A stretch of DNA of 64,000 nt from a virus (IMGVR_UViG_3300029720_000418:3344-67343); one strand, 5' to 3'; positions 3,401-64,000 are shown, counted from the stretch's first letter. Notes: generated by a model from the letters alone, not told the origin. Made by a program: numbers and translations.

Positions 3401-3478
3401 ATGAATGCAGTTATAGCAATATTGGCTGGCGCATTAATTTATGCGATCCTGAACAAGGTGGATAAGGATAAGAAATAG
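3401..3478 (+). CDS. 25-aa hydrophobic micro-peptide
   Basis: Has its own promoter copy (3343-3370), RBS GAAAGGAG and terminator. The terminator GAGAGCTACGGCTCTC is identical to the one after 2854-3030. Confidence 0.3.
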   Translation: MNAVIAILAGALIYAILNKVDKDKK

Positions 3479-3500
3479 GAGAGCTACGGCTCTCTTATTT

Positions 3501-3528
3501 TTCGCAAAATTTTCATTGGCTATTATGA
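3501..3528 (+). promoter_or_regulatory. conserved promoter-like motif copy
   Basis: TTCGCAAAATTTTCATTGGCTATTATGA. Confidence 0.45.
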
Positions 3529-3554
3529 AATAATATTTTTAAGGAGGGCTTAGT

Positions 3555-3758
3555 ATGAAAAAGGCTATTAAAATTATCGGAAAGATTACGAAATGGTATT
3601 TAATATTAGATGCGATTGTATGTGCATATATTGGAGTATGCCGGATGATCCATTTGGTTATGAAATATCCCCAAAAATCTATTCTGGAAATAGACGAAAT
3701 AGCTTTGGATGAGGCTGACGCTGAATTCAAAAAATATTATAACAAATATATTAAATAA
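3555..3758 (+). CDS. small membrane protein (67 aa)
   Basis: RBS TAAGGAGGG. N-terminal TM segment. Confidence 0.5.
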   Translation: MKKAIKIIGKITKWYLILDAIVCAYIGVCRMIHLVMKYPQKSILEIDEIALDEADAEFKKYYNKYIK

Positions 3759-3804
3759 GAGGGCTTCGGCTCTCTTATTTTTCAATAAGAAAGGAGATGA
3801 TCTA

Positions 3805-4584
3805 TTGATCAATGCAAAATTATTTCTCAAAAGACACTCTTCAACAATTTTAGCATGTCTTGGATGTGCAGGGGTTATAGTGACTTCTGTAACGGCTGTA
3901 CGAGCAACCCCAAAGGCTATTAAACTATTAGAAGAAGCCGAAGAAAACAAAGGATCTGAATTAACAACATGGGAAAAAGCCAAGACAACGACGAAAGCAT
4001 ATTTACCGTCGATATTGTTTGGTGTTTCAACCATTGCGTGTATTGCCGGTTCTTCGATTCTTTCATATAACACCCAGAAATCTATGGCAAGTGCATACGC
4101 TTTGATAAATCAATCGTATCGAGATTATCGTAGAAAAGCAAAAGATATTTACGGCGAAGATGCAGATAGAAAGATTCTTGATGCGATCATTGCTGAAAAA
4201 GCGAAGACTATGTACGTAGAAGCTCCTGGTATTTGTGATTGTGCGACCTTATACATCGACGAGAATCACGGAGAGAAACGATTGTTCTACGACGAATATG
4301 GCAAGCGATTCTTTGAATCAACGTTGGAGCAAGTTATATCAGCGGAGTATCATACGAACCGTAATTTTGTATTACGCGGATCACAGATGCTAAATGAATT
4401 CTATGGGTTCCTGGGTTTGGAACCTACTGATTTTGGTTGGGAAGCTGGATGGTGTGTTATGGATGAGTTTTATTGGATTGATTTTGATCATAGTGAAATT
4501 GAAATCGATGGCAAGAAATGTATCGTCATTCGGATGCCATGGGAACCTAAAATCGGATACGACGATGATAATTATTACTATTAA
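3805..4584 (+). CDS. paralog A of a two-TM membrane protein family (with 5150-5929 and 7534-8466)
   Basis: TTG start 8 nt after AAGGAG. Shares the N-terminal motif K-HS..IL..LG.AG..V.AA.ATPKA and a second TM. Also shares the C-terminal FYxxxGL...IGW domain. Confidence 0.6.
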   Translation: MINAKLFLKRHSSTILACLGCAGVIVTSVTAVRATPKAIKLLEEAEENKGSELTTWEKAKTTTKAYLPSILFGVSTIACIAGSSILSYNTQKSMASAYALINQSYRDYRRKAKDIYGEDADRKILDAIIAEKAKTMYVEAPGICDCATLYIDENHGEKRLFYDEYGKRFFESTLEQVISAEYHTNRNFVLRGSQMLNEFYGFLGLEPTDFGWEAGWCVMDEFYWIDFDHSEIEIDGKKCIVIRMPWEPKIGYDDDNYYY

Positions 4585-4801: not shown

Positions 4802-4890
4802 TTTTCAAATAGAGGATTCAATGGAAATATTGGGTCTTCTATTTTTTCAGCACGAAGACATCTGGAATCAATGATATTTTGATAGCGGGA

Positions 4891-4919
4891 TTCGCACGAA
4901 ATACATTGGCTATTATGGA
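4891..4919 (+). promoter_or_regulatory. conserved promoter-like motif copy
   Basis: TTCGCACGAAATACATTGGCTATTATGGA. Confidence 0.45.
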
Positions 4920-4936
4920 AAGGAGGTAAGCTATCT

Positions 4937-5149: not shown

Positions 5150-5929
5150 ATGAGTAAAGAATCATTTGCGAGATTTGTGAAAAGCACAAAAAGAGGTCTC
5201 GTAAAACACAGTCCGGAAATCTTAACCGGATTAGGAATCGCAGGAATGATATCATCTGTCGTTCTTGCAGCAAAAGCAACACCTAAAGCACTTCAGTTGA
5301 TTGAAGAAGCGAAGGATAAGGCGGATACAGACAAGCTTACAGTACCAGAAACAATCAAGGCAGCATGGAAGCCATATATTCCAGTTGTACTTACATGTGG
5401 TGCATCCGTAGCTTGTATCATTGGTGCCAATACGGTAAATACACGTCGTAATGCTGCTCTTGCTACAGCATATGAGCTCTCGAGAAATGCTCTGACCGAG
5501 TATAAGGAGCGTGTTGTAGAGGAGATCGGTAAGGAAAAGGAACAGAAGATACAGGAAAAGGTTGCTCAGAAAAAAGTAGACAATACACCTGTTACATCCG
5601 AGGTTATTGTAACTGGAGGCGGGGACATATTGTTCCTTGAACCTGTATCAGAGAGATATTTCAAATCCGATGTTGAGACTATTCGTAGAATCATCAACGA
5701 TTTGAACTATCGATTAATGAATGGCAGCGAGGAGTATGTATCGTTGAGTGATTTCTATGATGAAGTCGGTTTGACTCATACGGCAATCAGTAATGATATT
5801 GGGTGGAATTTGAATCATGATGGTCAGATATCGGTCAGCTTGCCCGCAACAAAGACAGACAAGGGAGAGCCATGCCTGATGTTGGATTATCATGTAGCAC
5901 CGCGGTACGATTATTCAAAATTATCGTAA
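5150..5929 (+). CDS. paralog B of the two-TM membrane protein family
   Basis: RBS GGAGGAAT. N- and C-terminal similarity to 3805-4584 and 7534-8466 is visible by eye. Confidence 0.65.
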   Translation: MSKESFARFVKSTKRGLVKHSPEILTGLGIAGMISSVVLAAKATPKALQLIEEAKDKADTDKLTVPETIKAAWKPYIPVVLTCGASVACIIGANTVNTRRNAALATAYELSRNALTEYKERVVEEIGKEKEQKIQEKVAQKKVDNTPVTSEVIVTGGGDILFLEPVSERYFKSDVETIRRIINDLNYRLMNGSEEYVSLSDFYDEVGLTHTAISNDIGWNLNHDGQISVSLPATKTDKGEPCLMLDYHVAPRYDYSKLS

Positions 5930-5957
5930 TTCGCGAAAAATACAAGCACTATTATGA
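5930..5957 (+). promoter_or_regulatory. conserved promoter-like motif copy
   Basis: TTCGCGAAAAATACAAGCACTATTATGA. Confidence 0.5.
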
Positions 5958-5992
5958 CAGAGTAAAAAATTATATTTAAGGAGGACGAAACT

Positions 5993-7533: not shown

Positions 7534-8466
7534 ATGAAGAATGATTTGAAAAATAAGATGACTCGGTCATTATGTAAGGCAAAGTTTAAGGTTAAAAAGC
7601 ATAGTCCAGAGATCTTGGTTGTTGCAGGCGTGATTGGTACGGTGACAAGTGCTGTGATGGCATGTCGCGCTACAACAAAGCTGAGTAAGATTCTCGATGA
7701 GGCGAAAGAGACAGAGAAGACAATCTCTGAAGGAATGGAAAGTGGATATATCGCAGATCAGGAATACACAGAGGAAGACGGCAAGAAGGATCTCAGAATC
7801 ACAAAGGTTCAGACTGGATTAAAGGTTGTAAAGCTGTATGCACCAGCTGTTATCCTTGGCGGATTATCAATCACAGCCATGCTGACATCTAACAATATTC
7901 TCAGAAAGAGAAACGTATCACTTGCAGCGGCATATGCAGCAGTAGATAAGAGTTTCAAGGAATATCGTGGCAGAGTAAAGGAACGTTTCGGTGAAGAGCT
8001 GGACAAGGAGCTTCGTTACAACATCAAGGCGAAGGAAATCGAAGAAGTAGTTAAGGACGAGAAGACCGGTAAGGAAAAGGTTCAGAAAAAGATCGTGAAC
8101 GTTTCTGATTTTGATGATTGCAGCGAGTACGCAAAGTTTTATGATTGCGGTTGCACTGGATGGACGAAAGATCCAGAATTGAATTTGATGTTTCTTAGAA
8201 AACAGCAGGATTTCTTGAATGATCGGTTAAAGGCTGAGGGTTATCTGTTCTTGAATGACGTGTATGATGCTCTTGGCATTCAGAAAACAAAGATTGGTCA
8301 GATTGCAGGTTGGATTTACGATGAAAAGAATCCAGTCGGAGATAACTATATCGATTTCGGAATTTATGACACTCATCGTGAGGCAAATAGAAGATTTGTA
8401 AACGGTCTTGAGAGAACAATTCTTCTTGATTTCAATTGTGATGGTGACATTCTGGACATGATGTGA
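7534..8466 (+). CDS. paralog C of the two-TM membrane protein family
   Basis: RBS AAAGGAG. Has the KKHSPEILVVAGVIG N-terminus and the IGQIAGW C-terminal motif. Confidence 0.65.
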   Translation: MKNDLKNKMTRSLCKAKFKVKKHSPEILVVAGVIGTVTSAVMACRATTKLSKILDEAKETEKTISEGMESGYIADQEYTEEDGKKDLRITKVQTGLKVVKLYAPAVILGGLSITAMLTSNNILRKRNVSLAAAYAAVDKSFKEYRGRVKERFGEELDKELRYNIKAKEIEEVVKDEKTGKEKVQKKIVNVSDFDDCSEYAKFYDCGCTGWTKDPELNLMFLRKQQDFLNDRLKAEGYLFLNDVYDALGIQKTKIGQIAGWIYDEKNPVGDNYIDFGIYDTHREANRRFVNGLERTILLDFNCDGDILDMM

Positions 8467-23963: not shown

Positions 23964-24066
23964 TTCTTTCTGCCAATGAAACACTTTTCCTAGTTATCGC
24001 TAGGGGTCACATTTTGTGGCTAACGGGGAACCACCCATTGGAATCCCGTGGGAAACATTTCAAATA

Positions 24067-24094
24067 TTCGCGAAATTTACAAGGTGTATTATGA
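24067..24094 (+). promoter_or_regulatory. conserved promoter-like motif copy inside the ThyX interruption
   Basis: TTCGCGAAATTTACAAGGTGTATTATGA. Confidence 0.5.
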
Positions 24095-24284
24095 GAGAAT
24101 AGACACTCGAAAGGGCAGTGAAGTTTGAGGATCCAAGCATCATTGGAAACTAATCGGGAAGGAGATAATAGTGAAAACTATGCACGAGGCTAGATCGAAA
24201 GATGAACTATATTGAAAGATATACCATGAGCCTGAGGGAAATATCGGCGTCCTTCGAGTGGAATTGATGTATTCTCTTTTCTTT

Positions 24285-31012: not shown

Positions 31013-33988
31013 TTGAATCCTATTGCAGAAGAAATTGAATCATATCATGGATGTGGCTCGATGACAACGACTGAATTCCTTGAGCATTATGGAATGCCTA
31101 GAAGATCGGGCAGATATCCATGGGGTTCTGGTGGAGATCCATATCAGCATGAGAGAGACTTCCTTAGTCGAGTTGAAGAATTAAAAGCAACTGGCTGGAC
31201 AGAAACTCCGGAGAATATTAAAGAGACATTCGGATTGACGACAACACAGTATCGTACAGAGAAAGCTCTGGCTAAAGATGAACGAAGAATGTATGACGTA
31301 GCAAGAGCAAAGTCACTCAGAGATGATGGTCTTGGAGCAACAGAGATTGGACGTAAGATGGGTATCAATGAATCGACAGTCAGATCATTACTTAATCCAC
31401 ATTCTGAACAGCGTATGGAGCAGGCGAGAAACACTGCAAAATATTTGAAAGAACAAGTGGATAAGAAAGAAATGGTTGAGGTTGGTACAGGTGTAGAGCG
31501 AGAGCTGAATATTTCAAAGGAGAAATTAGATCAAGCTCTCTATCTGTTGCAGAGAGATGGATATAACGTTTACAAAGGTGGAATACCACAGGCAACCAAC
31601 CCAGGGCAGCAGACAAATCAGAGAGTATTATGTAAGCCTGGAATTGAGCATAAAGAAATATATGATTTCAATAGAGTACAGTCCTTGAAAGATTACATTT
31701 CGAGAGATGGCGGTGATACTTTTGAAAAGAAGTTCCATTATCCAGAGAGCATGGATTCAAGGCGATTGGCTATCCGTTACAAAGAAGATGGGGGAATCGA
31801 CAAGGATGGAGTAGTAGAGCTTCGTCCTGGTGTTGCTGACTTATCGCTTGGCGAATCTCGTTATTCTCAGGTTCGTATTATGGTTGACGGTAAGAAATAC
31901 ATAAAGGGTATGGCTGTTTATGGAGATCCAAAAGATTTTCCCGATGGTGTTGACGCTATCTTCAATACAAACAAATCTAAGTCAGTAGCAAAGATGGATG
32001 TGTTGAAAGACATCAAGAATGATCCAGACAATCCTTTTGGTTCACTCATCAAAGATGCTGATCAAGGAGGTCAGTATTGGTATGATGATCCAAAGACTGG
32101 TAAAAAGAAACTTGGATTAATCAATAAAAGATCCGATGAGGGTGATTGGACTGAATGGAAAGACACGTTACCATCTCAGTTTTTAGCAAAGCAGTCATTG
32201 AGAATGGCGGGTAAACAGCTGGATTTAGCCAAGGCAGACAGAAGAGATGAGTTTGAAGAGATTAAATCTATCACGAACCCTGTGATTAAAAAACATTTCT
32301 TAGAAAAATTTGCTGATAGTTGTGATTCAGCATCAGTTCATTTGAAAGCAGCAGCGTTACCGGGGCAGAAATACCATGTAATACTTCCTATCAATTCTTT
32401 AAAGGAGAACGAAGTGTATGCTCCTGGATATACGCCAGGAACTAAGTTAGCATTGATTCGTTATCCGCATGGTGGAACATTTGAAATTCCAATACTTACT
32501 GTTACTGATAAAAATCCAGAAGGTAGAAGAATAATCGGAACCGAATCTATTGATGCAGTCGGTATTAATCACACGGTTGCTGAGCGTTTATCAGGAGCCG
32601 ATTTTGATGGTGATACTGTTATGTGTATCCCAACACACGACAAAGCAGGAAGGGTTAAGATCGCCTCAACGCCTCCATTAAAAGGTCTTGAGGGATTTGA
32701 TCCAAAAATGTCATACCCAGAACGTCCTGGTATGAAATATATGAAAGACCCAAAGACTGGTAAAGACAATACTCAGAATGAAATGGGGAGAATTTCAAAC
32801 CTTATCAGTGATATGACCTTAGCAGGAGCACCACCAGAAGAAATGGCTAGAGCAGTAAGACATTCTATGGTAGTTATTGATGCTGGAAAACATAAGTTGG
32901 ACTACAAGCAAAGTGAGATTGATAACAACATTAAAGCATTGAGGAAAGAATATCAGGTTAAGACAGATAAGGATGGAAACATTACTGGCTATGGTGGTGC
33001 CGCTACTATCATTTCAAGAAGTAAGGGCGAATCTACAATAAACAAACGCCAAGGTACGCCCAAGATTAATCTTAAGGGTAAAGAATGGTATGACCCAAGC
33101 AGACCTGAAGGTGCACTTATCTATAAAGATGCAGATAACCTATACTACCCAGATCGTAAGCAAGAAAAAGGTATCGTGGAGTTACGTACCGTGGATGGTA
33201 AAAAAGTAACCTACTCCTATGCCGATAAGGATGCGGTAGATAGGTATGCCCCAGTAGAGAGGAGAGACCCTGCTACCGGAAAAGTCACATTCACTAATAA
33301 AGATGGAAGCATAGAGTATCGAACCAAGGTTCATACACAGAAGAGTACCAATATGGCTGATACTGATGATGCATACACTCTAGTATCAAAGGCTAGACAC
33401 CCTATGGAACTTCTATATGCCGATTATGCCAATGATATGAAAGCATTAGCGAATCAGGCACGTGTTGAACTAGCTAATACAAGTAAGGTGGCATATAACC
33501 GAAATGCCAACACAATGTATAAAGCAGAGGTTAAGTCGTTGGATGAGAAACTTAATAATGCATTATTAAATGCTCCTAGAGAGCGTGCCGCGCAACGAAT
33601 GGCTAATGCTGAAGTACAAAAGAAACAATTGGACAATCCTGATTGGAAGTCTGCTGATGTTAAGAAAGCGAGTCAGCAAGCATTAACAAAGTTTCGACAA
33701 GAAGTTGGCTCTGTCTCGAGAAGAGCTCGAAACATACAGATTACAGACAATGAATGGAAAGCTATTCAAGCTGGAGCAATCAGTGAAAGTAAATTAAAGA
33801 AGATTCTTAATAATGCAGACATTGATGAATTGAGACAACGTGCCACACCAAGACAGACAAAAGCTATGACCGAATCTCAAATCAATCGTGCAAAAGCAAT
33901 GTCTTCTTCGAACTTCACATTAAAACAGATCGCAGATGCTTTAGGTGTCTCAACATCAACAGTTTCAAAGTATTTGAAAGGAGCGTGA
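31013..33988 (+). CDS. single-subunit RNA polymerase with beta-prime-type double-psi beta-barrel (YonO/crAss-vRNAP-like), flanked by HTH domains
   Basis: LALIRYPHGGTFEIPIL at ~32455-32500 matches the beta-prime NRAPTLHRLGIQAFEPVL region. GADFDGDTVMCIP at 32594-32632 matches NADFDGDQMAVHVP. Sigma-region-4-like HTHs lie at the N-terminus (~31300-31390) and the extreme C-terminus (~33900-33985). Confidence 0.6.
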   Translation: MNPIAEEIESYHGCGSMTTTEFLEHYGMPRRSGRYPWGSGGDPYQHERDFLSRVEELKATGWTETPENIKETFGLTTTQYRTEKALAKDERRMYDVARAKSLRDDGLGATEIGRKMGINESTVRSLLNPHSEQRMEQARNTAKYLKEQVDKKEMVEVGTGVERELNISKEKLDQALYLLQRDGYNVYKGGIPQATNPGQQTNQRVLCKPGIEHKEIYDFNRVQSLKDYISRDGGDTFEKKFHYPESMDSRRLAIRYKEDGGIDKDGVVELRPGVADLSLGESRYSQVRIMVDGKKYIKGMAVYGDPKDFPDGVDAIFNTNKSKSVAKMDVLKDIKNDPDNPFGSLIKDADQGGQYWYDDPKTGKKKLGLINKRSDEGDWTEWKDTLPSQFLAKQSLRMAGKQLDLAKADRRDEFEEIKSITNPVIKKHFLEKFADSCDSASVHLKAAALPGQKYHVILPINSLKENEVYAPGYTPGTKLALIRYPHGGTFEIPILTVTDKNPEGRRIIGTESIDAVGINHTVAERLSGADFDGDTVMCIPTHDKAGRVKIASTPPLKGLEGFDPKMSYPERPGMKYMKDPKTGKDNTQNEMGRISNLISDMTLAGAPPEEMARAVRHSMVVIDAGKHKLDYKQSEIDNNIKALRKEYQVKTDKDGNITGYGGAATIISRSKGESTINKRQGTPKINLKGKEWYDPSRPEGALIYKDADNLYYPDRKQEKGIVELRTVDGKKVTYSYADKDAVDRYAPVERRDPATGKVTFTNKDGSIEYRTKVHTQKSTNMADTDDAYTLVSKARHPMELLYADYANDMKALANQARVELANTSKVAYNRNANTMYKAEVKSLDEKLNNALLNAPRERAAQRMANAEVQKKQLDNPDWKSADVKKASQQALTKFRQEVGSVSRRARNIQITDNEWKAIQAGAISESKLKKILNNADIDELRQRATPRQTKAMTESQINRAKAMSSSNFTLKQIADALGVSTSTVSKYLKGA

Positions 33989-33993
33989 ATTAA

Positions 33994-34245
33994 ATGAATT
34001 ATCAATCTTTATTGACAACAACAGATAATCCATTCGATCCATTCGAGCAGTTCACGCAATGGCAATTGTTTGATGCTCAAAAAGGAAGAGATACGTGTGG
34101 TTATTTGATGCGAATTGCCAAAATTTCAGATGATATGTCTGAAGTTGAGTGCGATAAAGAAATAAATCGAGCAATTGATGAAATTATTGCAGAAAATCCT
34201 TTAGGAATTTACACAAAAGTTACAAAAGAGCTCGTTTTGGGCTAG
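33994..34245 (+). CDS. hypothetical protein (83 aa)
   Basis: ATG 4 nt after the RNAP stop. Followed by GC hairpins and a T-run. Confidence 0.5.
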   Translation: MNYQSLLTTTDNPFDPFEQFTQWQLFDAQKGRDTCGYLMRIAKISDDMSEVECDKEINRAIDEIIAENPLGIYTKVTKELVLG

Positions 34246-34367
34246 ATATGTGGTGGAAAAAGCATAGAGGGGGGTCTGAAAAAACGCACCCCCTCCCTGC
34301 ATCGCCGCCCTCTTTGAAAATTCCCCGGAGGGATTTTTTATATTTGAGTTTCATGATACTTGTAAGG

Positions 34368-34471
34368 GCTTATGATATGGTCTAATGCACATCTCAATGG
34401 ACCTGCCACCTATTGAGAGTTTGTTAATTTCTCCTTTCTGTTTTGTGCATCCCTCCGCCATATCATAAGTC
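34368..34471. repeat. nested imperfect palindrome immediately upstream of the terS-like gene
   Basis: Outer arms CTTATGATATGG / CCATATCATAAG. Inner arms ATGCACA / TGTGCAT and CTCAATGG / CC(T)ATTGAG. Confidence 0.5.
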
Positions 34472-34523
34472 TTTATAAGTGTTATGAAACAGTATGGAAA
34501 CTATAAGAAAGGAGATCAGAAAC

Positions 34524-34877
34524 ATGGCAAAAGTGAAGCAAACCTCAACCAAAGACACAAAAAAGAGCCTCAGACCAGCTTTAACACCAGAGGCAAGAGA
34601 AAACAGAGCTATTGCTTTGGCTATGGATTTGGTCGAGCAGCGGTTGATTGATGGAACGGCATCATCACAGGAAACAACTCATTTTTTGAAGCTTGGTTCT
34701 GTAAAGAATAAACTCGAGATAGAGAAACTTAAAGCTGAGAATGATCTCATCCACGCAAAAGCAGAAATGGTACGGGCTCAGAAGAATAATGAGGAGATGT
34801 TTAAGGATGCTATCGCGGCAATGAAGGAGTATAGTGGCAATGGAACTATGGAGGATGATGTAGAAGATGAATGTTAA
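34524..34877 (+). CDS. putative terminase small subunit
   Basis: Sits immediately upstream of the HNH and TerL genes. ATG after AGAAAGGAGAT. Small helical protein. Assignment is by position only. Confidence 0.35.
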   Translation: MAKVKQTSTKDTKKSLRPALTPEARENRAIALAMDLVEQRLIDGTASSQETTHFLKLGSVKNKLEIEKLKAENDLIHAKAEMVRAQKNNEEMFKDAIAAMKEYSGNGTMEDDVEDEC

Positions 34878-35286
34878 AAGATATTCAGAACTTATAAAAT
34901 TTCCAACATTCGAAGAAAGATATGACTATCTGAAATTGAATGGTCGAGTCGGTGAAGACACTTTTGGTTTTGATAGATATCTGAATCAAGTTTTTTATCG
35001 ATCAAAAGAATGGCGATCAGTGAGAGATTTTGTTATAGCAAGAGATAACGGATGCGATTTAGCAATTGATGGTCGAGAGATATTTGATAAAATTCTAATA
35101 CATCATATGAATCCGATTACTAAGGATGATGTGCTAAAAAGGCAAGATTATATTTTGAATCCCGAGTATCTGATAACAGTTACAAAGCGTACACATGATG
35201 CAATACATTATGGCGATAAAGAATTGTTATTAAGCACGTCGCCAATTACAAGAACTAAGAATGATACATGTCCATGGAGACATTAA
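34867..35286 (+). CDS. HNH endonuclease (terminase-associated type)
   Basis: H-N-H motif ILIHHMNP ... THDAIH. Located next to the terminase genes. Confidence 0.7.
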   Translation: MNVKRYSELIKFPTFEERYDYLKLNGRVGEDTFGFDRYLNQVFYRSKEWRSVRDFVIARDNGCDLAIDGREIFDKILIHHMNPITKDDVLKRQDYILNPEYLITVTKRTHDAIHYGDKELLLSTSPITRTKNDTCPWRH

Positions 35287-35337: not shown

Positions 35338-35715
35338 ATGAGCGAAGTCACAAATGCGAACGACAGCATTCTTACATCAATCAAGAAGATTCTTGGAATA
35401 CCAGAAGAGCATGAACACTTTGATGCGGATATCATTATGCATATCAACACAGTTTTTATGATTCTCAATCAACTTGGTGTCGGACCTGCTTCTGGTTTTA
35501 AGATTCTGGATAAAACTACGATGTGGGACGACTATTTGAAAGATGATAGTCAGTTAGAAGCTGTGAAATCTTATATGGGCTATAAAGTTCGATTGATGTT
35601 TGACCCTCCATCAAGCTCAGCCATCACAGAGTCAATTAATCGTGTTGTTAGTGAGCTTGAATGGCGAATACTTGTGATGGTCGAAAGTAAAAATTCTCGA
35701 GAGGAGGAATCATGA
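35338..35715 (+). CDS. hypothetical protein (125 aa)
   Basis: ATG 7 nt after GAGGAGG. A terminator at 35291-35320 precedes it. Confidence 0.5.
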   Translation: MSEVTNANDSILTSIKKILGIPEEHEHFDADIIMHINTVFMILNQLGVGPASGFKILDKTTMWDDYLKDDSQLEAVKSYMGYKVRLMFDPPSSSAITESINRVVSELEWRILVMVESKNSREEES

Positions 35716-36347
35716 TGTACGAATATGTATTATGCCATCATGGTGTTCTTGGTATGAAATGGGGTGTCCGTAGATACCAGAATGCTGATGGAAGTCTTAC
35801 GTATGCTGGAAAGAAACGAGCATTGAAAATCCAGAATAAATATACAAATTTTACGGAGAATCAAAAGTATCGAAAGAAGAATGGCGACTATACATATGCC
35901 GGTCGTAAGAAGTCTTTGAAGATGCGAGAGAAGTATTCAGCTGTTACTGGCGGAAAGAAGTTGACAAAGTTTGTTCCACCATCACAGCCAGCAAGTTCTG
36001 GAAAACCCAAAACATTAGCAGAAATGTCAAACAAAGAGATCGCAGATAAGATCGATAGAATTAGATTGGAGAATACTCTTAAATCACTTACTCCGCAGAA
36101 AGTTTCAAAAGGTAAAAAATTTGCAGATGGGATGAAGTCGTTAGCGGTTTCGACATTGAAAGGTCCTGCAACAAAAATAGCAAGCGAGTATATCGAAAAG
36201 AAATTACGATCAAAACTTGATTTAGGAGATCCGAATACTAAGAAAAAAGAGTCAGAAAAATTACAGCAGGAAATGTTGGATGCTAGAAATAGATATAATA
36301 TTGAAAACTTCACAAAGTTGTATAACGACTTGAAAAATAAGAAATAG
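35712..36347 (+). CDS. lysine-rich basic protein, HHGVxGxKWGVR family member 2
   Basis: N-terminal LCHHGVLGMKWGVRRY. RBS GAGGAGGAA. Confidence 0.6.
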   Translation: MMYEYVLCHHGVLGMKWGVRRYQNADGSLTYAGKKRALKIQNKYTNFTENQKYRKKNGDYTYAGRKKSLKMREKYSAVTGGKKLTKFVPPSQPASSGKPKTLAEMSNKEIADKIDRIRLENTLKSLTPQKVSKGKKFADGMKSLAVSTLKGPATKIASEYIEKKLRSKLDLGDPNTKKKESEKLQQEMLDARNRYNIENFTKLYNDLKNKK

Positions 36348-36359
36348 GAGTGATTTTAT

Positions 36360-38123
36360 ATGGCATTATCGAACACCGCCACCCCACGATACTACGGCGA
36401 GTTTCGAGATGCCGTACTTCGAGGCGAAATCCCGGTAAATGAAAAAATCGAGATGGAAATGAATCGAATAGACGCGTTGATACAGAATCCTGGCGTCTAC
36501 TACGATGATAAGGCAATAGATGGGTTTATTGCTTATTGTGAAAAAGAATTGGTTCTAACAAATGGCGATGATCTACATTTATTGGATTCATTTAAACTGT
36601 GGGCTGAGCAGATTTTTGGATGGTATTATTTTGTAGAGAGAAGTGTATATGTGCCATCAAAAGATGGACACGGGGGGCACTATGCGAGAAAACGAATTAA
36701 GAAGCGGCTTATAAATAAGCAGTATTTAATAGTTGCAAGAGGTGCAGCAAAATCTATGTATGCTTCCTGCATTCAAAACTATTTCTTGAATGTCGATACA
36801 TCCACAACACATCAGGTCACAACAGCTCCAACAATGCCACAAGCGGAAGAGGTTATGTCACCGATCAAGACAGCCATAACCAGAGCGAGAGGGCCGCTAT
36901 ATCAATTTCTTACTTATGGGTCATTGCAGAATACGACTGGTTCAAAAGCTGACCGAGTAAAGCTTGCCAGCACGAAGAAGGGGATTCAGAATTTCTTGAC
37001 CGGATCATTATTGGAAGTAAGACCAATGTCGATTGACAAGCTTCAGGGTTTACGTGTAAAGATAGCTACTGTGGATGAATGGTTATCAGGAGATGTCCGG
37101 GAAGATGTAATTGGTGCGTTGGAGCAGGGTGCCGCTAAGGAACAGGGCGGAGGAATGAATGACGACTACCTTATTGTAGCGATTTCCTCCGAAGGAACTG
37201 TCCGTAATGGTTCAGGAGATACAATCAAAATGGAATTGATGAGTATATTAAAAGGCGAGTACAATGCTCCGCATACATCGATATGGTGGTATGCTCTTGA
37301 TTCTGTCGATGAAGTATCAGATCCGGATTTATGGATAAAAGCAAATCCAAACCTTGGAAAAACTGTAAGTTATGAAACGTATCAGCTGGATGTCGAGAGA
37401 GCCGAAAAGAATCCGGCAGTTCGGAATGATATTTTGGCAAAGAGATTCGGTATACCCATGGAGGGTTATACATATTACTTCACATATGAAGAAACTCTTC
37501 CGCATAGAAAGAAAGAGTATTGGCAAATGCCATGTTCAATGGGAGCAGATCTTTCTCAGGGCGATGATTTCTGTTCTTTCGCATTTCTATTTCCATTATC
37601 TAATGGAGAATTCGGCGTAAAAACAAGAAACTACATAACCGAGCTTACTTTAAATAAGCTGCCTTCGGCTATGAGAATTAAATATGAAGAATTTATGAAT
37701 GAAGGAAGTCTTATTGTCATGGATGGAAACATTCTCGATATGATGCAGGTATTCGACGATTTGGACGAATACATCCTGTCTATTGGCTACGATGTTCGGT
37801 GTTTTGGATATGATCCATACAATGCTAAAGAATTTGTGGAAAGATGGGCAAGAGAAAATGGTCCATTTGGCATTGAGAAAGTAATACAGGGAACAAAGAC
37901 CGAGTCAGTCCCATTAGGTGAATTAAAGAAGTTATCAGAAGAGAGAATGCTACTGTTCGATGAGAAGCTTATGACCTTTGCGATGGGAAACTGTATTGTC
38001 ATGGAGGATACGAATGGAAACCGTAAGCTTCTGAAGAAACGACATGATGCGAAGATCGATGCTGTAGCGGCTATGATGGATGCCTTTGTCGCATTCAAAC
38101 TGAATCGAGAAGCATTTGAATAA
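36360..38123 (+). CDS. terL: terminase large subunit
   Basis: N-terminal ATPase (VARGAAKS P-loop-like, DEW) and C-terminal RNaseH-like nuclease (KRHDAKIDAVAAMMDAF). Length and position are typical. Confidence 0.8.
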   Translation: MALSNTATPRYYGEFRDAVLRGEIPVNEKIEMEMNRIDALIQNPGVYYDDKAIDGFIAYCEKELVLTNGDDLHLLDSFKLWAEQIFGWYYFVERSVYVPSKDGHGGHYARKRIKKRLINKQYLIVARGAAKSMYASCIQNYFLNVDTSTTHQVTTAPTMPQAEEVMSPIKTAITRARGPLYQFLTYGSLQNTTGSKADRVKLASTKKGIQNFLTGSLLEVRPMSIDKLQGLRVKIATVDEWLSGDVREDVIGALEQGAAKEQGGGMNDDYLIVAISSEGTVRNGSGDTIKMELMSILKGEYNAPHTSIWWYALDSVDEVSDPDLWIKANPNLGKTVSYETYQLDVERAEKNPAVRNDILAKRFGIPMEGYTYYFTYEETLPHRKKEYWQMPCSMGADLSQGDDFCSFAFLFPLSNGEFGVKTRNYITELTLNKLPSAMRIKYEEFMNEGSLIVMDGNILDMMQVFDDLDEYILSIGYDVRCFGYDPYNAKEFVERWARENGPFGIEKVIQGTKTESVPLGELKKLSEERMLLFDEKLMTFAMGNCIVMEDTNGNRKLLKKRHDAKIDAVAAMMDAFVAFKLNREAFE

Positions 38124-38136
38124 AGGAGGAAACACA

Positions 38137-38676
38137 ATGTACGAGAATGAATTATATCATCATGGTGTTCTTGGTATGAAATGGGGTGTTAGAAAAGCAT
38201 ACCATCGAGTAAGCCAAAATGATCGTTTACAGAAGAGAGCTTTTAATTATGATAAAAAGTCTGCTGTAGCAACAAAAAAATCAGAAAAAATACACGCAAA
38301 GAAAGATCTGGCACGATCAAACAGAAATGCAATACGTTCTGCAAAATATGCTAAAAAATCTTCAGTTCTTAATAAAAAAGCTTTGAAACTCGATGACGGG
38401 TATAAGCGAAGTATGCTCGAACGAAAAGCAGCTAATTTAAGTTTTAAATCCGCTAAAAAGAAGATAAAAGCTGATAGAATTTCCAAGACAAAGGGTTACG
38501 GTGCACGGGCGTTAAAGTATTCCATAAAATCAGATAAGTTTATCATGAAAGCACAAAAAATGCGGAAGAAATTGGCTTCTAATAACGCTTATATGGAAAA
38601 AATGAATAGAAAAGTAAACTCGCTTCCAAAAGATAAGATCGAAGAAGTGCGGGCATATATGAACAGTTTTTCGTAA
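38137..38676 (+). CDS. lysine-rich basic protein, HHGVxGxKWGVR family member 3
   Basis: N-terminal LYHHGVLGMKWGVRKAY. RBS AAGGAGG. Confidence 0.6.
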   Translation: MYENELYHHGVLGMKWGVRKAYHRVSQNDRLQKRAFNYDKKSAVATKKSEKIHAKKDLARSNRNAIRSAKYAKKSSVLNKKALKLDDGYKRSMLERKAANLSFKSAKKKIKADRISKTKGYGARALKYSIKSDKFIMKAQKMRKKLASNNAYMEKMNRKVNSLPKDKIEEVRAYMNSFS

Positions 38677-56604: not shown

Positions 56605-59283
56605 GTGACATTGTCTAATGATTTGGCGAGTCAATTCGCAAAATTACTAAACGATGGCAACGATAAAAAGCCAAAAGAGACATCTATGTATGGAACATTT
56701 GTCGAGAGTGATAAAAAAAAATACGTGAAGTTGGATGGATCTGAGTTGCTTACTCCTGTAATACAGACTGCTGCGGCTAAGGATGGAGAGCGTGTCACGG
56801 TTACAGTAAAGAATCGTACTGCCGTTGTTACAGGAAACCTGTCGTCTCCCGCTGCTAGATTAGGAGACGTGGAAGATCTCTCAGCAAAAGTACTGTCTGT
56901 CGAAGAGCTCATGGCGAAGAAAGTATCAACTGATGAACTTGAGGCTACGATTGGTAGAATAGAAACTCTCGAAACTGACAATGCGACGATTAGAGATACT
57001 CTGACAGCTCAATCAGCAAAGATCGATGATCTCGAAGCTGATAATGCGACCATTAATGGCACTCTGACTGCTCAATCAGCAAAGATTGACAATCTCGAAA
57101 CAACTAAGCTTAGTGCAGAGATTGCTGAAATAACCTATGCAACAATCACGAATTTGGATGCAACAAATGTAGCGATACGTAATTTGAATGTTGATTATGG
57201 CAAGTTTAAAGATGCAACAGTTGAGTCGTTTAGGGCAACGGAAGCTTCTATTGAATCGTTAAATACAACGAAATTATCGGCAGAACAAGCAGATATTCGA
57301 TATGCAAATATTGATTTCTCGAATATTGGTAAGGCTGCGATTGAACAGTTCTATGCAACATCCGGCATTATTAAAGATTTGGTTATCGGAGATCAGACAG
57401 TCACGGGAGAATTGGTTGGCGTTACAATCAAGGGTGATCTGATTGAGGGTAATACCATTAAAGCAGATAAACTGGTGGTAAAGGGTTCTGACGGACTATA
57501 TTACAAGCTCAATGTATCTGCTGAGACCGTAGAAACAGAGCAGACAGATCAAAATAGCTTGAATGGAAACATTATCACGGCAAAGTCTATAACCGCTACT
57601 AAGATTAGCGTAGAAGATTTAGTCGCTTTCGATGCAACAATCGGCGGTTTTAATATCACCAACAACGCTATATATTCGGGAGTAAAAAGTTCTGTCGACA
57701 ACACAACAAGAGGAATCTATCAGGATAAGGATGGACAGATTGCTTTTGGCGATGGAGATAGTTTCCTAAAGTATTTTAAGGATAAAGACGGAAAATATAA
57801 GCTGGCAATATCAGCAGACAACATTAAATTTAGCGCAAGTAATAAAGATCTGGATACGGTGCTTGGTTCCACAATAACCAGTGCCATCGAGGAATTCTAT
57901 TTATCTAAATCGCCTACGTCATTATCTGGCGGATCATGGTCAAAAACACAGCCAACATGGACAGAAGGAAAGTATATATGGAGAAGAACTGCGGTAACAT
58001 ATGGAGATGGAAGTTCTGAATATATGCCATCGCCAAATGGTGTGTGCATTACTGGTAATACCGGAGCCAAAGGAGATACTGGTGAGGGTATCAAATCTAC
58101 GGCAGTAACATACCAAGCTGGAGCATCAGGAACTACGGTTCCAACTGGGACGTGGTCTGCGTCGATACCGGCTGCGGACACATCAAAGCCATATCTTTGG
58201 ACGAGGACAATTATTACCTACACTGATAATACGACATCTACATCATACAGTGTAGGTGCTACACCAGAAGGAATGGTTCAAAAGAAAAAGATTATTTCTG
58301 AAATCAACCAGTCGGCAGAGGAGATTTCGATCAAGGCTGAAAAAATCAGTCTCGAAGGTCTTGTCACTGCCAATCAGAATTTTAAGGTGCTGGAAGATGG
58401 CTCAATAGAGGCAGTTAATGGTAAGTTTACTGGCGAGATATATGCTACGAGCGGTAAATTCGAGGGCGAAATAGTCTCATCTAAGGCGACTATTACTGGC
58501 GGAAGTGTAAATATTACTAGCGATGGAAGTTATTCGGCATATATGACTATAACAGCCACTAATATACCTACTGGTTATGGTGAACATATGGGAACAGTTA
58601 CAACAAATATTGATGCCGGTGGAATGAAAATAACATCTGGTGATTTCTTATCCCATTATGGAGGTTTAGGGCTAGATGTAACTGAAGGAACTACAACGTA
58701 TTTTTCAGCAGGCCCCGACAGAACATATGCACTTGTATTAGAAACGCTTGAAGCGCATGTGACCGGTAACCTCACCGTCTCCGGAACAATCAATGGTGTG
58801 AAATGGAATTGGTCTGGACAAGGCGGACAGCCAAGCTGGTTGTGGGGCGGAAACGATGGTGCAAACATGTATGTATATAATCCATCGAACTTTAGCGTAA
58901 ATTATGCCAAATCTGCGAATTATGCTAATAGCGCAGGAGGTATTTCGGCTCCCATATATGGATATGACAAGAATGTTAATATTACTTGTGGAGGATGGAG
59001 CACGCCGGCTAGTGTGACACTTCCTGCCGGAACATATATCGGAATGGTGTTTGCAAAGATGTATGGAACTCCTGCGTCCAGAATGGTTATGGTTTTTTCA
59101 ACTAATAGTGGAGCTACTGATGCGGGGGCTTATATGTCAGATGATAATATGGATAGGGCATGCTGTAGTTCTCCGGTTGTTATAAACATCAGTGGTAACA
59201 CTAATTTTTATTTGAGGGTATACAACAGTATGTCAGGAGTTAGAGCATGTCATTGCGGGTGGTACTTAGTAAAAGTTAAATAA
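56605..59283 (+). CDS. tail fibre / receptor-binding protein
   Basis: GTG start after GGAGGTGA. Repeated coiled-coil units (DNATIxxTLTAQSAKIDxLE). Short collagen-like GNTGAKGDTGEG stretch. Beta-rich C-terminus. Confidence 0.6.
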   Translation: MTLSNDLASQFAKLLNDGNDKKPKETSMYGTFVESDKKKYVKLDGSELLTPVIQTAAAKDGERVTVTVKNRTAVVTGNLSSPAARLGDVEDLSAKVLSVEELMAKKVSTDELEATIGRIETLETDNATIRDTLTAQSAKIDDLEADNATINGTLTAQSAKIDNLETTKLSAEIAEITYATITNLDATNVAIRNLNVDYGKFKDATVESFRATEASIESLNTTKLSAEQADIRYANIDFSNIGKAAIEQFYATSGIIKDLVIGDQTVTGELVGVTIKGDLIEGNTIKADKLVVKGSDGLYYKLNVSAETVETEQTDQNSLNGNIITAKSITATKISVEDLVAFDATIGGFNITNNAIYSGVKSSVDNTTRGIYQDKDGQIAFGDGDSFLKYFKDKDGKYKLAISADNIKFSASNKDLDTVLGSTITSAIEEFYLSKSPTSLSGGSWSKTQPTWTEGKYIWRRTAVTYGDGSSEYMPSPNGVCITGNTGAKGDTGEGIKSTAVTYQAGASGTTVPTGTWSASIPAADTSKPYLWTRTIITYTDNTTSTSYSVGATPEGMVQKKKIISEINQSAEEISIKAEKISLEGLVTANQNFKVLEDGSIEAVNGKFTGEIYATSGKFEGEIVSSKATITGGSVNITSDGSYSAYMTITATNIPTGYGEHMGTVTTNIDAGGMKITSGDFLSHYGGLGLDVTEGTTTYFSAGPDRTYALVLETLEAHVTGNLTVSGTINGVKWNWSGQGGQPSWLWGGNDGANMYVYNPSNFSVNYAKSANYANSAGGISAPIYGYDKNVNITCGGWSTPASVTLPAGTYIGMVFAKMYGTPASRMVMVFSTNSGATDAGAYMSDDNMDRACCSSPVVINISGNTNFYLRVYNSMSGVRACHCGWYLVKVK

Positions 59284-60675: not shown

Positions 60676-60835
60676 ACTAATGTTTAGTTTCAAGTAATGG
60701 CAATAAAAAGCGGTTTATTTGACCATTATTTGACACTTTATACCGTATAAATGGCTTAAAACCTAGACTTTCTGTTTCTGTTGAGGAAGCAGCAAAGGCT
60801 GGAAAGTTCTAGAGACAATGAGCCGTGCATAACGG

Positions 60836-60895
60836 ATAAAAAAATGGCTGGTCAAGCTTGCTTGAAACCAGTCATTTTTTTATCCGTTTATATAG
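60836..60895. repeat. long inverted repeat / stem-loop (~20-bp arms)
   Basis: CGGATAAAAAAATGGCTGGT ... ACCAGTCATTTTTTTATCCG, with one mismatch. Confidence 0.6.
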
Positions 60896-62488: not shown

Positions 62489-64000
62489 ATGTCAGGTTCA
62501 ACAATTGCTATTATTATCATTATCGTGGCATTGCTGGTCATTTTATTTACCAGTTATGTCAAATCACCACCGGATAAGGCGTATATCATTTCCGGTTTAA
62601 GAAAGACACCGAAGATTCTGATTGGTAAAGCAGGCTTGAAGCTTCCGTTCTTCGAGCGGAAGGATGAACTGTTGATCAAGCAGATCAGTATCGATATCAA
62701 GACGGATGATTATGTTCCGACACTGGATTTCATCGGTGTTAACATTGATGCAGTTGCGAAAGTTAAGATCCGTACGGATGAAGAAGGTATGCAACTTGCC
62801 ATGAAGAATTTCCTGAATATGAAGGAACCGCAGATTATGGAAGCACTGGTGGATTCTCTGCAGGGTAATATGCGTGAGATTATCGGTACGATCAGTCTGA
62901 AGGAGTTGTGTAACGATCGTAAGTCCTTCGGTGATCAGGTGCAGGAGAAGGCGCAGGTGGATATGAATCGTCTGGGTATTGAGATTATTTCCTGCAACAT
63001 CCAGCATGTAGAGGATCAGAATGACCTGATTATCGCGCTTGGTCAGGATAACATGGCAGCAATCCAGAAGAATGCAAGTATCGCCAAGGCAAACGCAGAC
63101 CGTGATGTAGCGATCGCACAGGCACAGGCGAGAAAAGAAGCGAACGATGCAAAGGTATTATCCGATACGGAAATTGCCGTGAAGCAGAATGAGCTTTCTA
63201 TCAAGAAGGCAGAATTAAAGACAATCGAAGATACGAAGAATGCGGAAGCAGATGCGGCTTACGAGATTCAGAAGGAAGCACAGCGTAAGACAATCGAGGT
63301 TACAAAGACCGAGGCAGATATCGCACGTCAGGAGAAGGAAGTTGACCTGAAGAAGAAGGAAGCCGAGGTTATGGAGCAGTCCCTCGATGCGGATATTCGT
63401 AAGAAAGCGGAGGCGGACAAGTTCGCAAGACAGCAGCAGGCAGATGCGGAGCTTTACAAGCGTCAGAGAAATGCCGAGGCAGATAAGTTTGAGAAGCAGC
63501 AGGAAGCTGAGGCGAAGAAGGCACAGGCAGAGGCAGAGCTTTTCGCAAAGCAGCAGGAGGCAGCAGGTATCCGTGCAGTCGGCGAGGCAGAGGCGAAGGC
63601 AATCGAAGCCAAAGGTCTTGCAGAGGCAGAAGCCTTAGAGAAGAAAGCCGAAGCGATGAAGAAGTATGGTCAGGCAGCGATGGTGGAAATGATCGTGAAG
63701 GCATTGCCGGAGATGGCAAAGGCAATCGCAGAGCCACTCTCTACAATCGACAAGGTTACGATCATCGACGGCAACGGCGAAGGTTCCGGTGTCGGTTCGA
63801 TGGGGTCGTATGTGCCACAAGTCCTTGCAAAGACAATGGAGTCTGTGAAGGAAGTAACAGGTATCGATATCGCGGATATTATGCGTGCAAATACATACGA
63901 TGCAAAGGTTAACAAGAATGTGAACATCACAGGCCTGGATGGAATCAAGGTAGAAGCTCCTGCAGAGGCGGGAACTTCCGTAGATACAACTGTGGAGTAA
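62489..64000 (+). CDS. flotillin / SPFH (band-7) family protein
   Basis: N-terminal TM. SPFH domain. Long A/E/K-rich coiled-coil repeats (AEAEAKAIEAKGLAEAEAL). GC content is clearly higher than in the phage region. Confidence 0.75.
   Translation: MSGSTIAIIIIIVALLVILFTSYVKSPPDKAYIISGLRKTPKILIGKAGLKLPFFERKDELLIKQISIDIKTDDYVPTLDFIGVNIDAVAKVKIRTDEEGMQLAMKNFLNMKEPQIMEALVDSLQGNMREIIGTISLKELCNDRKSFGDQVQEKAQVDMNRLGIEIISCNIQHVEDQNDLIIALGQDNMAAIQKNASIAKANADRDVAIAQAQARKEANDAKVLSDTEIAVKQNELSIKKAELKTIEDTKNAEADAAYEIQKEAQRKTIEVTKTEADIARQEKEVDLKKKEAEVMEQSLDADIRKKAEADKFARQQQADAELYKRQRNAEADKFEKQQEAEAKKAQAEAELFAKQQEAAGIRAVGEAEAKAIEAKGLAEAEALEKKAEAMKKYGQAAMVEMIVKALPEMAKAIAEPLSTIDKVTIIDGNGEGSGVGSMGSYVPQVLAKTMESVKEVTGIDIADIMRANTYDAKVNKNVNITGLDGIKVEAPAEAGTSVDTTVE

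Follow-up and report, generated by a model that had tools for sequence, protein, structure and literature searches.

The gap at positions 34246-34523 of a 64,000-nucleotide (nt) stretch of phage DNA (IMGVR_UViG_3300029720_000418:3344-67343, the whole of which we call the window) appears to hold two adjacent, separable elements, a cohesive-end (cos) site and a leader hairpin with a post-transcriptional role. We put the probability of this combined reading at about 0.7. Judged from sequence comparisons, 34267-34339 is almost certainly the cos site of a 1706/Oengus-like siphovirus. The hairpin at 34348-34490 (~140 nt) very probably acts as a single strand of + sense, most likely as RNA, in the 5' leader of the packaging and structural operon that follows a YonO-like polymerase gene. 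That it serves as a post-transcriptional control element is a tentative proposal. The elements of the gap are:

34267-34295, + strand: right-end cos flank, a box of G-run, AAAA and C-run (GAGGGGGGTCTGAAAAAACGCACCCCCTC) that can form a 7-base-pair (bp) stem
34303-34311, + strand: predicted cohesive end CGCCGCCCT, a 9-nt 3' overhang
34312-34339, + strand: left-end cos flank CTTTGAAAATTCCCCGGAGGGATTTTTT, a near-invariant TC(C/T)CCGG(A/G)GG box with a T-run, matching the first bases of phages Qui and 1706
34338-34345, + strand: TTATATTT box, 2 nt before the base of the hairpin; possible promoter or initiation element
34348-34490, + strand: conserved leader hairpin with a 33-bp closing stem and two inner stems
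34429-34438, + strand: near-invariant anti-Shine-Dalgarno-like motif TTCTCCTTTC, on the unpaired 3' side of the apical region
34506-34515, + strand: Shine-Dalgarno (SD) region AGAAAGGAGA (SD AAAGGAG at 34508-14), with start codon ATG at 34524, of the gene for a 117-amino-acid (aa) protein

We compared the gap with phage genomes by sensitive blastn and found matches in 73 phage records; megablast of phages gave none. Among the actinophage matches listed, window positions 34267-34311 aligned to the very last bases (41-45 nt) of linear genomes with defined ends, for example those of Arthrobacter phages Qui (113641-113685 of 113685) and Giantsbane (56694-56734 of 56734). Both genome ends of Qui and of Lactococcus phage 1706 were aligned to the window by eye. 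The deposited Qui genome ends in ...GGGGGGTCCGCAAAAACTGACCCCCCTTCTGCATCGCCGCCCT (terminal ...CATCGCCGCCCT) and begins with CCCTAAAATATCCCCGGGGGAATTTTT, its start matching the window from 34312 onward; the window reads ...GGGGGGTCTGAAAAAACGCACCCCCTCCCTGCATCGCCGCCCT up to the cut and CTTTGAAAATTCCCCGGAGGGATTTTTT beyond it. Phage 1706 ends in ...GCATCGCCCTGTCT and starts with CTCTAAAATTTCCCCG. Its cohesive end has been reported as a 3' protruding GCCCTGTCT of 9 nt, and four of its relatives with Sanger-mapped cos sites carry the overhang CGCCCCAGTC, the published overhangs being 9 and 10 nt long and 3' protruding (PMC4110766).

The ends of metagenomic contigs located the cuts. We collected 80 IMG/VR loci with the 117-aa protein, and 18 of these contigs were found to start exactly at the homologue of 34312. 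In two further contigs (L067 and L084) an Illumina adapter (...GCTCTTCCGATCT) was fused directly to the same base. A contig of 60,095 bp (076329), which shares 97% identity with the window in the 117-aa protein, begins with CTTTGAAAATTCC and ends with ...CCCTCCCTGCAT (...CTGCAT, the homologue of 34302), with exactly CGCCGCCCT absent between the two. The same 9-nt gap was seen in a second lineage on comparing L102 with L101, the end of L102 being 9 nt short. Because the overhang bases were lost and not duplicated at contig ends, as end-polishing of a 3' overhang gives, the overhang should be 3' protruding, and the contig starts and ends with 9 nt lost between them place the top-strand nick between 34311 and 34312 and the bottom-strand nick between 34302 and 34303. 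In the proposed reaction, terminase and the nearby HNH endonuclease would nick the two strands at these positions and yield virion DNA with 9-nt 3' cohesive ends. Headful (pac) packaging was ruled out by the unique, identical start points in many independent contigs and by the adapter fused at one base. Lambda-type 5' protruding ends of 12 nt were rejected on the loss of the overhang bases at contig ends and on the published 3' overhang of the homologue. A side product of this survey was the adapter sequence itself, left over in public virome contigs (L067 1-33, L084 1-32) and joined there to the physical end of the phage.

The original prediction, made without database searches, had described the gap as a G7/C7 hairpin, a CCCTC/GAGGG hairpin with a T-run and a nested palindrome, and all the features it named are present where it placed them. 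The cos cuts lie between and partly within the first two of these 'hairpins', outside the palindrome. The G7/C7 stem does exist, as GAGGGGG (in GAGGGGGG, 34267-34274) with CCCCCTC (34289-34295), though it has 7 bp and is made of a G6 run and a C5 run. This right-end box is kept in Qui, FP_oengus, MT835495 and the IMG/VR relatives. The right end of 1706 retains the G-run and not the C-run, and we therefore treat this flank as a sequence box and not as a proven hairpin. On the left side, CCCTC (34308-34312) does pair with GAGGG (34328-34332), enclosing a 15-nt loop, and T6 follows at 34334-34339. Positions T11, C12, C14, C15, G16, G17, G19 and G20 of the left flank were invariant in 29 leaders (a leader being the sequence between the cos cut and the first start codon), and the box occurs once in the window. 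The CCGG box was rejected as a selected hairpin, since all four flanking combinations (C..G, T..A, T..G, C..A) occur, without covariation. Both the right-hand G-run/C-run box and the left-hand TC(C/T)CCGG(A/G)GG box with its T-run are probable protein recognition sequences. No intrinsic terminator was found in a scan of 33500-35000. The GC-richness, said to be unmatched in the phage, proved local and ordinary: only ~80 nt (34253-34332) reach 57-64% GC, other places in the window equal or exceed this, and the whole interval has 42% against a window mean of 38.6%.

The palindrome is the longest inverted repeat in the 64-kb window. Its 12-bp outer arms, CTTATGATATGG (34369-34380) and CCATATCATAAG (34458-34469), are present, though the full arms are 33 nt long (34348-34380 and 34458-34490). 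Their complementarity is 85%, with each of the 5 mismatches a G:T on the + strand. Both inner arm pairs were recovered (ATGCACA/TGTGCAT at 34385-91/34444-50 and TCTCAAT/ATTGAGA at 34392-98/34412-18). The spacer between the outer arms is 77 nt here and varies in length among relatives. The structure had been thought to end ~20 bp before a downstream start at 34494; from the end of the hairpin to the likely ATG at 34524 there are 33 nt. Folding, which the prediction had proposed as a check, gave -103 kcal/mol for the + strand (z = -6.5, 0/200 shuffles as good) and z = -2.1 for the - strand. A perfect 9/9 complement between the left cos flank (CGGAGGGAT, 34326-34) and the inner 3' side of the hairpin (ATCCCTCCG, 34449-57) was dismissed as a functional pairing; it is not kept in relatives and is probably lineage-specific or due to chance.

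We used 32 distinct leaders to follow the hairpin through evolution. A long hairpin was found in all 32, with 26-64 enclosing pairs and differing arm sequences, and the + strand was the more stable one in 26 of them (by 10.8 kcal/mol on average over the set). RNAalifold on a plain MAFFT alignment of 29 leaders returned 22 consensus pairs, all 22 with compensatory changes. Across these pairs 91.2% of cells were paired, against 69.7% in shuffles (0/500 shuffles reached the observed value), and the covariation score was 0.64, against 0.30 when shuffled and 0.10-0.18 when partners were slid. Non-Watson-Crick cells were strongly biased, with 84 G:T against 11 A:C (p = 2e-9 against the composition-expected ratio). 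Compensation beyond the shuffled and slid controls and strand specificity, the general criteria for a conserved structured RNA, were thus both observed. As compensatory change and a G:U bias argue against a protein site in duplex DNA, we regard the hairpin as a conserved single-strand structure of RNA type and + sense, most likely RNA and less likely single-stranded DNA (ssDNA) of the + strand. The palindrome can also sit far from cos in relatives, and because of this and of its evolution as a single-stranded RNA helix it is not the terminase cut site. Of the candidate functions first offered for the region, a genome end is therefore retained, as cos and in the GC-rich part, and a leader RNA for the palindrome; pac and the palindrome as a place of terminase cleavage are dropped.

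Rfam 15, whose families include 6S RNA, riboswitches and phage-associated motifs, gave 0 matches at the gathering threshold in the whole window, and a permissive scan of 34100-34650 returned only noise at an expectation value (E) above 1. In the literature searched we found no description of the hairpin, and nothing on the overhang sequence in the Arthrobacter phage papers. The hairpin, which many phages from gut and soil share, looks like a new structured RNA family, whose function we infer from its features. A miniature inverted-repeat transposable element (MITE) or other dispersed repeat was rejected, as the 64 kb contain a single covariance-model match and a single inverted repeat of this kind.

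The only invariant columns within the hairpin spell CTCCTTTC, inside TTCTCCTTTC(A/G). CTCCTTTC was found in 48 of 49 independent hairpins and was mostly unpaired in 34 of these 48. The near-invariant apical sequence UUCUCCUUUC is complementary to Shine-Dalgarno sequences and matches the 3' tail of 16S rRNA. In the window the motif complements the SD region at 34506-34515 at 10/10 positions and is the sole exact copy on the + strand, the other copies being the reverse strand of gene SDs. In one lineage (L049) motif and SD have both changed, CTCCCTTTC occurring with GAAAGGGGA. Duplexes with the phage's own SD were predicted at -14.46 kcal/mol and those with SDs of other phages at -14.00 kcal/mol (permutation p = 0.023), a comparison that is uncorrected for relatedness and in which both partners are constrained by 16S rRNA anyway. 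A minus-strand gene using GAAAGGAGAA as its SD was rejected: only open reading frames (ORFs) of 3-16 codons follow, and they are unconserved in close relatives (ATG in L084, ACG in L063).

A covariance model (R1) was built from 20 sequences taken from the leaders, with 27 pairs. It has a single match in the window, at 34350-34490 on the + strand (74.8 bits), and it also matches the non-seed phages FP_oengus, MT835495 and Qui (35 bits for Qui). R1 gave no match in 1706 at E <= 0.01; folding of 1706 yielded a long hairpin with TTCTCCTTTAC in a loop. We further assembled 80 loci from bacterial genome assemblies, none of them in the R1 seed, and found a + strand match in ~68 of the 80, usually 40-250 nt upstream of the 117-aa gene and including Blautia glucerasea, Blautia faecis and Lachnospiraceae isolates. 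In the alignment of the bacterial loci, which is fitted to the model, 96% of cells pair, compensatory change is seen at 26/27 pairs and several positions have G:U as their most frequent pair. Six contigs of this Clostridia-type phage group (L105, L114, L118, L127, L146, L156) are binned in metagenome-assembled genomes labelled Spirochaetes, Burkholderiaceae, Methanobrevibacter, Phocaeicola and Muribaculum, probably by mis-binning. At its left end Qui (L004 1-613) has a 613-nt non-coding leader (z = -11.9) with three long hairpins, only the middle one of which (294-415) fits R1.

What is constant across relatives is the sense orientation of the hairpin, its non-coding stretch and its place at the head of the left-arm operon. 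The relatives that share the locus have ~43-60% identity in the polymerase protein, and the hairpin stands beside a YonO-like polymerase wherever both were examined (the window, FP_oengus, MT835495, Qui and, by folding only, 1706). The genes that follow it differ in L021, L037, L080 and 1706. L051 and L085 showed no cos box ahead of the hairpin, and in L058 cos and hairpin are separated by a gene. R1 also found no match in the 1.7-kb yonN-yonK gap of SPbeta, where only two loose TCTCCTT strings were seen by eye. That gap (L104 19153-20833, minus strand) is non-coding and separates the YonO operon from the late genes, with the TCTCCTT strings 75-120 nt upstream of yonK.

The mechanism we tentatively favour is as follows. 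The long, nearly perfect stem would be a determinant of stability, of RNase III processing or of both, and would hold out the unpaired UUCUCCUUUC loop; the loop, as a mimic of the 16S rRNA 3' tail, could then pair with the SD of the next gene or with other mRNAs and tune their translation. The duplex is of a length expected of an RNase III substrate (at least ~20 bp), at 33 bp in the window and 26-64 enclosing pairs in relatives. Several points weigh against this account and the two-element reading around it. Pairing of the motif with its own SD is only marginally better than with the SDs of others, and for the loop to pair with the SD in cis a pseudoknot would have to span a ~33-bp stem, with only a 15-nt linker in this phage. 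The change of the following gene between phages argues against control of one specific gene. The pairing figures of the bacterial loci are inflated by the fit to the model, and the G:T bias fits + strand ssDNA as well as it fits RNA. Transcription of the hairpin, its start site and its processing are all putative, and the ends of this phage are read from homologues and from contigs that are ~97% identical to it in the flanking gene.

In the main competing view the hairpin is a promoter-proximal RNA whose target is the transcribing polymerase, either through put-like antitermination or through regulation or recruitment of the YonO-like polymerase, for read-through of the ~27-kb late operon. We consider this rather unlikely, though several observations speak for it: the hairpin stays at the head of a long one-strand operon despite changes of neighbour, its structure is conserved and its unpaired motif invariant, as would suit a contact for protein or polymerase, and it co-occurs with the polymerase as described above. 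YonO moreover transcribes the SPbeta late operon, which begins at an unannotated non-coding RNA and whose promoter is unknown (PMC5467207). Nevertheless no sequence or Rfam similarity to a known antiterminator RNA was detected, there is one long hairpin in place of the two short stem-loops of put, and the SPbeta yonN-yonK gap gave no model match. Somewhat less probable again is a 16S 3'-tail mimic that acts in trans on SDs, shutting off host or early-phage translation, or as a decoy for a factor that binds the anti-SD tail of the ribosome, or alternatively a dedicated cofactor of the YonO-like polymerase. The trans-acting version would have the RNA abundant from the start of late transcription, perhaps released by processing. 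Either version, if true, would mean a new class of phage regulatory RNA in phages of gut Clostridia and at least some actinophages (with a model match in Qui only).

Readings at the level of DNA fared worse. A cosB-like terminase site in duplex DNA, with the inverted repeats binding small-terminase dimers near the nick, would fit the position of the palindrome between the nick site and the first left-arm gene, as for lambda cosB, and a loose consensus TAGCATTTAGA ... TCTAAATGCTA in the lower stem; we think it very unlikely, as the arm sequences vary freely while pairing is kept, the excess of G:T over A:C is not expected of duplex DNA, the arm spacer (77 nt here) varies in length, and cos and hairpin were not found side by side in L051, L085 and L058. 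About as little credit can be given to a hairpin that forms in + strand ssDNA for replication priming by an RNA polymerase primer, in the manner of rolling-circle single-strand origins or the complementary-strand origin of M13. The strand-specific pairing bias would suit such an origin, the G-rich + strand (the + strand is G-rich throughout the window) would be the one displaced in sigma replication, and the size and shape (~140 nt, conserved loop motif) resemble those of ssoA-type origins. Yet the hairpin is invariably found between genes, where the left-arm operon begins, in sense orientation and just before an SD, and its preferred G:U positions are typical of RNA. DUF5906 was the sole domain found in a 1385-aa ORF of the phage; we take this domain to be associated with D5-like primase-helicases, and if so, specific priming sites would be needless. 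A terminator, an insulator or a miniature mobile repeat without a specific role is scarcely conceivable: the left cos flank does have a short GC stem followed by a T-run, and 33-nt terminal inverted repeats resemble those of a MITE, but the terminator scan was empty, no run of T follows the long hairpin, and its one copy in 64 kb keeps the same locus across relatives with compensatory evolution. A leader RNA with a post-transcriptional role stays the likeliest reading.

Since no T-run follows the long hairpin, transcription should run on into the genes downstream. Many relatives carry a (T)ATATTT box 1-8 nt ahead of the hairpin; L051 and L085 do not. In the window TTATATTT occurs in 28 copies where 8.6 are expected, 26 of the 28 on the + strand and almost all in 1-35155; several copies stand just upstream of early-region gene starts and some within coding sequence. 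The box may be a promoter or initiation element, perhaps for the phage polymerase, or an element related to translation. No sigma-70 promoter was called between cos and the hairpin, where no -35 element occurs at the right spacing. Boxes of the form (C)ATTTATATTT were noted directly upstream of SDs (e.g. 5970, 14683, 24726, 30171 and 34338). Separately, TTCGCGAAA-N(10-14)-CTATTATGA recurs in gaps near 1483-1625, 2462-2572, 3466-3554, 4802-4936, 5930-5992 and 23964-24257, often just after a terminator-like hairpin, and resembles an early promoter family with a TATTAT -10 and an unusual upstream element.

The window is a phage genome coded on one strand, and the gap is bounded by a small conserved ORF at 33994-34245 (phrog_4303) and by the ORF for the 117-aa protein; it spans 34246-34523 if the latter begins at ATG 34524. 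This ATG is most likely the true start, and the protein alignment of the relatives begins at MAKVK. The neighbouring genes that bear on the analysis are:

31013-33988, + strand: YonO-like two-barrel RNA polymerase, 991 aa (phrog_4291, 1209 bits; GADFDGD motif)
34524-34877, + strand: 117-aa protein (phrog_4259, a PHROG family of unknown function)
34867-35286, + strand: HNH endonuclease (phrog_4321, E = 1e-62)
36360-38123, + strand: terminase large subunit, TerL (Pfam TerL_nuclease 1.4e-36; phrog_9 3e-109)

Downstream of the gap the order is 117-aa gene, HNH, connector-like protein, TerL and portal. The 117-aa protein, which the original prediction had called terS-like and which stays a candidate small terminase subunit, had no match in Pfam, NCBIfam or PDB. 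Its AlphaFold model has two helices (predicted local distance difference test score, pLDDT, 74), and Foldseek against PDB returned only hits with E > 3, that is, no match to a solved structure. There are ~4,900 homologues of this flanking gene in the protein database, and its nearest relatives in bacterial genomes (~46-61% identity) come from Lachnospiraceae and other gut Clostridia. The 991-aa polymerase carries sigma-region-4-like helix-turn-helix domains near its N-terminus (residues ~100-170) and at its C-terminus, and belongs to the '1706 family' of YonO-like single-chain RNA polymerases (PMC2919709). A homologue is carried by 250 phage records, and the linear actinophage and 1706 records that we examined have its gene at the right end of the genome; in relatives it was always the penultimate gene before cos. 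Many SEA-PHAGES records annotate it merely as a 'helix-turn-helix DNA-binding protein'. In all relatives examined the common gene order was exonuclease, polymerase, small ORF, cos, leader, HNH and TerL, and the HNH synteny extends to 1706, Qui, Giantsbane and Mooshroom.

Elsewhere in the window, no tRNA or tmRNA genes were found. A short N-terminal DUF7211 motif is shared by two ORFs on either side of the TerL gene (35712-36347 and 38116-38676), and three DUF6353 paralogues lie in the early region (3709-4584, 5150-5929 and 7534-8466). The gene at 21764-22510 matches Pfam Tad3, a type I Thoeris inhibitor (E = 3e-32), and is likely an anti-defence gene. An inverted repeat at 60831-60888 (AACGGATAAAAAAATGGCTGGT / ACCAGTCATTTTTTTATCCGTT, 22 nt, 95% complementary, 14-nt spacer) straddles the boundary between a 225-nt gap and the ORF that follows. 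The last kilobase (63001-64000, GC ~50%) is the richest part of the window and lies inside an ORF that begins at 62489 and runs off its end.

One study detected Oengus-like phages in as many as 40% of gut virome samples (PMC5883640). For this very common group, the cos assignment would fix the true genome ends and the mode of packaging, and would explain why many of its metagenomic contigs break at the same base. The hairpin heads the late operon of phages with a YonO-like single-chain polymerase, and it offers a concrete, mutable element for studying how late genes are switched on or tuned in these phages.

Compared with known systems, the cos site is ordinary, a further member of a known and experimentally mapped type. 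Like those of 1706 and its relatives (Fremauxvirus) and of Arthrobacter phages Qui and Giantsbane, it has homologous flanks on both sides, with a 3' overhang of 9-10 nt in the type, and it lies in the same synteny of Cas4-like exonuclease, YonO-like polymerase, small ORF, cos, non-coding leader, HNH, TerL and portal. The overhang itself differs, being CGCCGCCCT here, GCCCTGTCT in 1706 and CGCCCCAGTC in P078-type phages, as does the host group, the closest bacterial-genome relatives of the flanking gene being from Lachnospiraceae and other gut Clostridia. In lambda cos (cosQ-cosN-cosB), too, recognition sequences flank a defined nick site, the packaging genes follow directly downstream, and the cohesive ends rejoin after injection. 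Its overhang is 5' and 12 nt long, it uses IHF and R sites and it does without an HNH partner, in contrast to the 9-nt 3' overhang and adjacent HNH gene here, and where its R sites act as DNA the neighbouring palindrome here behaves as RNA. Phages of the HK97, phi12 and phiSLT type depend on HNH for cos packaging and keep the HNH gene close to the terminase genes and cos. Their gene order differs, the HNH gene here lying downstream of cos and of the 117-aa gene, and the likeness drawn here is one of gene content.

For the hairpin the closest likenesses are among regulatory RNAs. The UCCC loops of Staphylococcus aureus RNAIII and the Rsa RNAs, and anti-SD sequestering leaders, present a C/U-rich unpaired motif on a stable stem; the motif here is longer (UUCUCCUUUC), copies the 16S 3' tail and is set on a ~30-bp stem within a putative mRNA leader. 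RNase III processing hairpins of the T7 early region, the lambda N leader and sib are also long, near-perfect duplexes in polycistronic phage transcripts near a translation start, but share no sequence similarity with the present hairpin, whose predicted stem exceeds theirs in length and bears an invariant motif in its loop. HK022 put, finally, is a promoter-proximal, cis-acting structured RNA that heads a long phage operon, as the leader hairpin is proposed to be; it consists of two short stem-loops and works with the host polymerase, whereas here there is one long hairpin, a phage-encoded two-barrel polymerase and no similarity that we could find.

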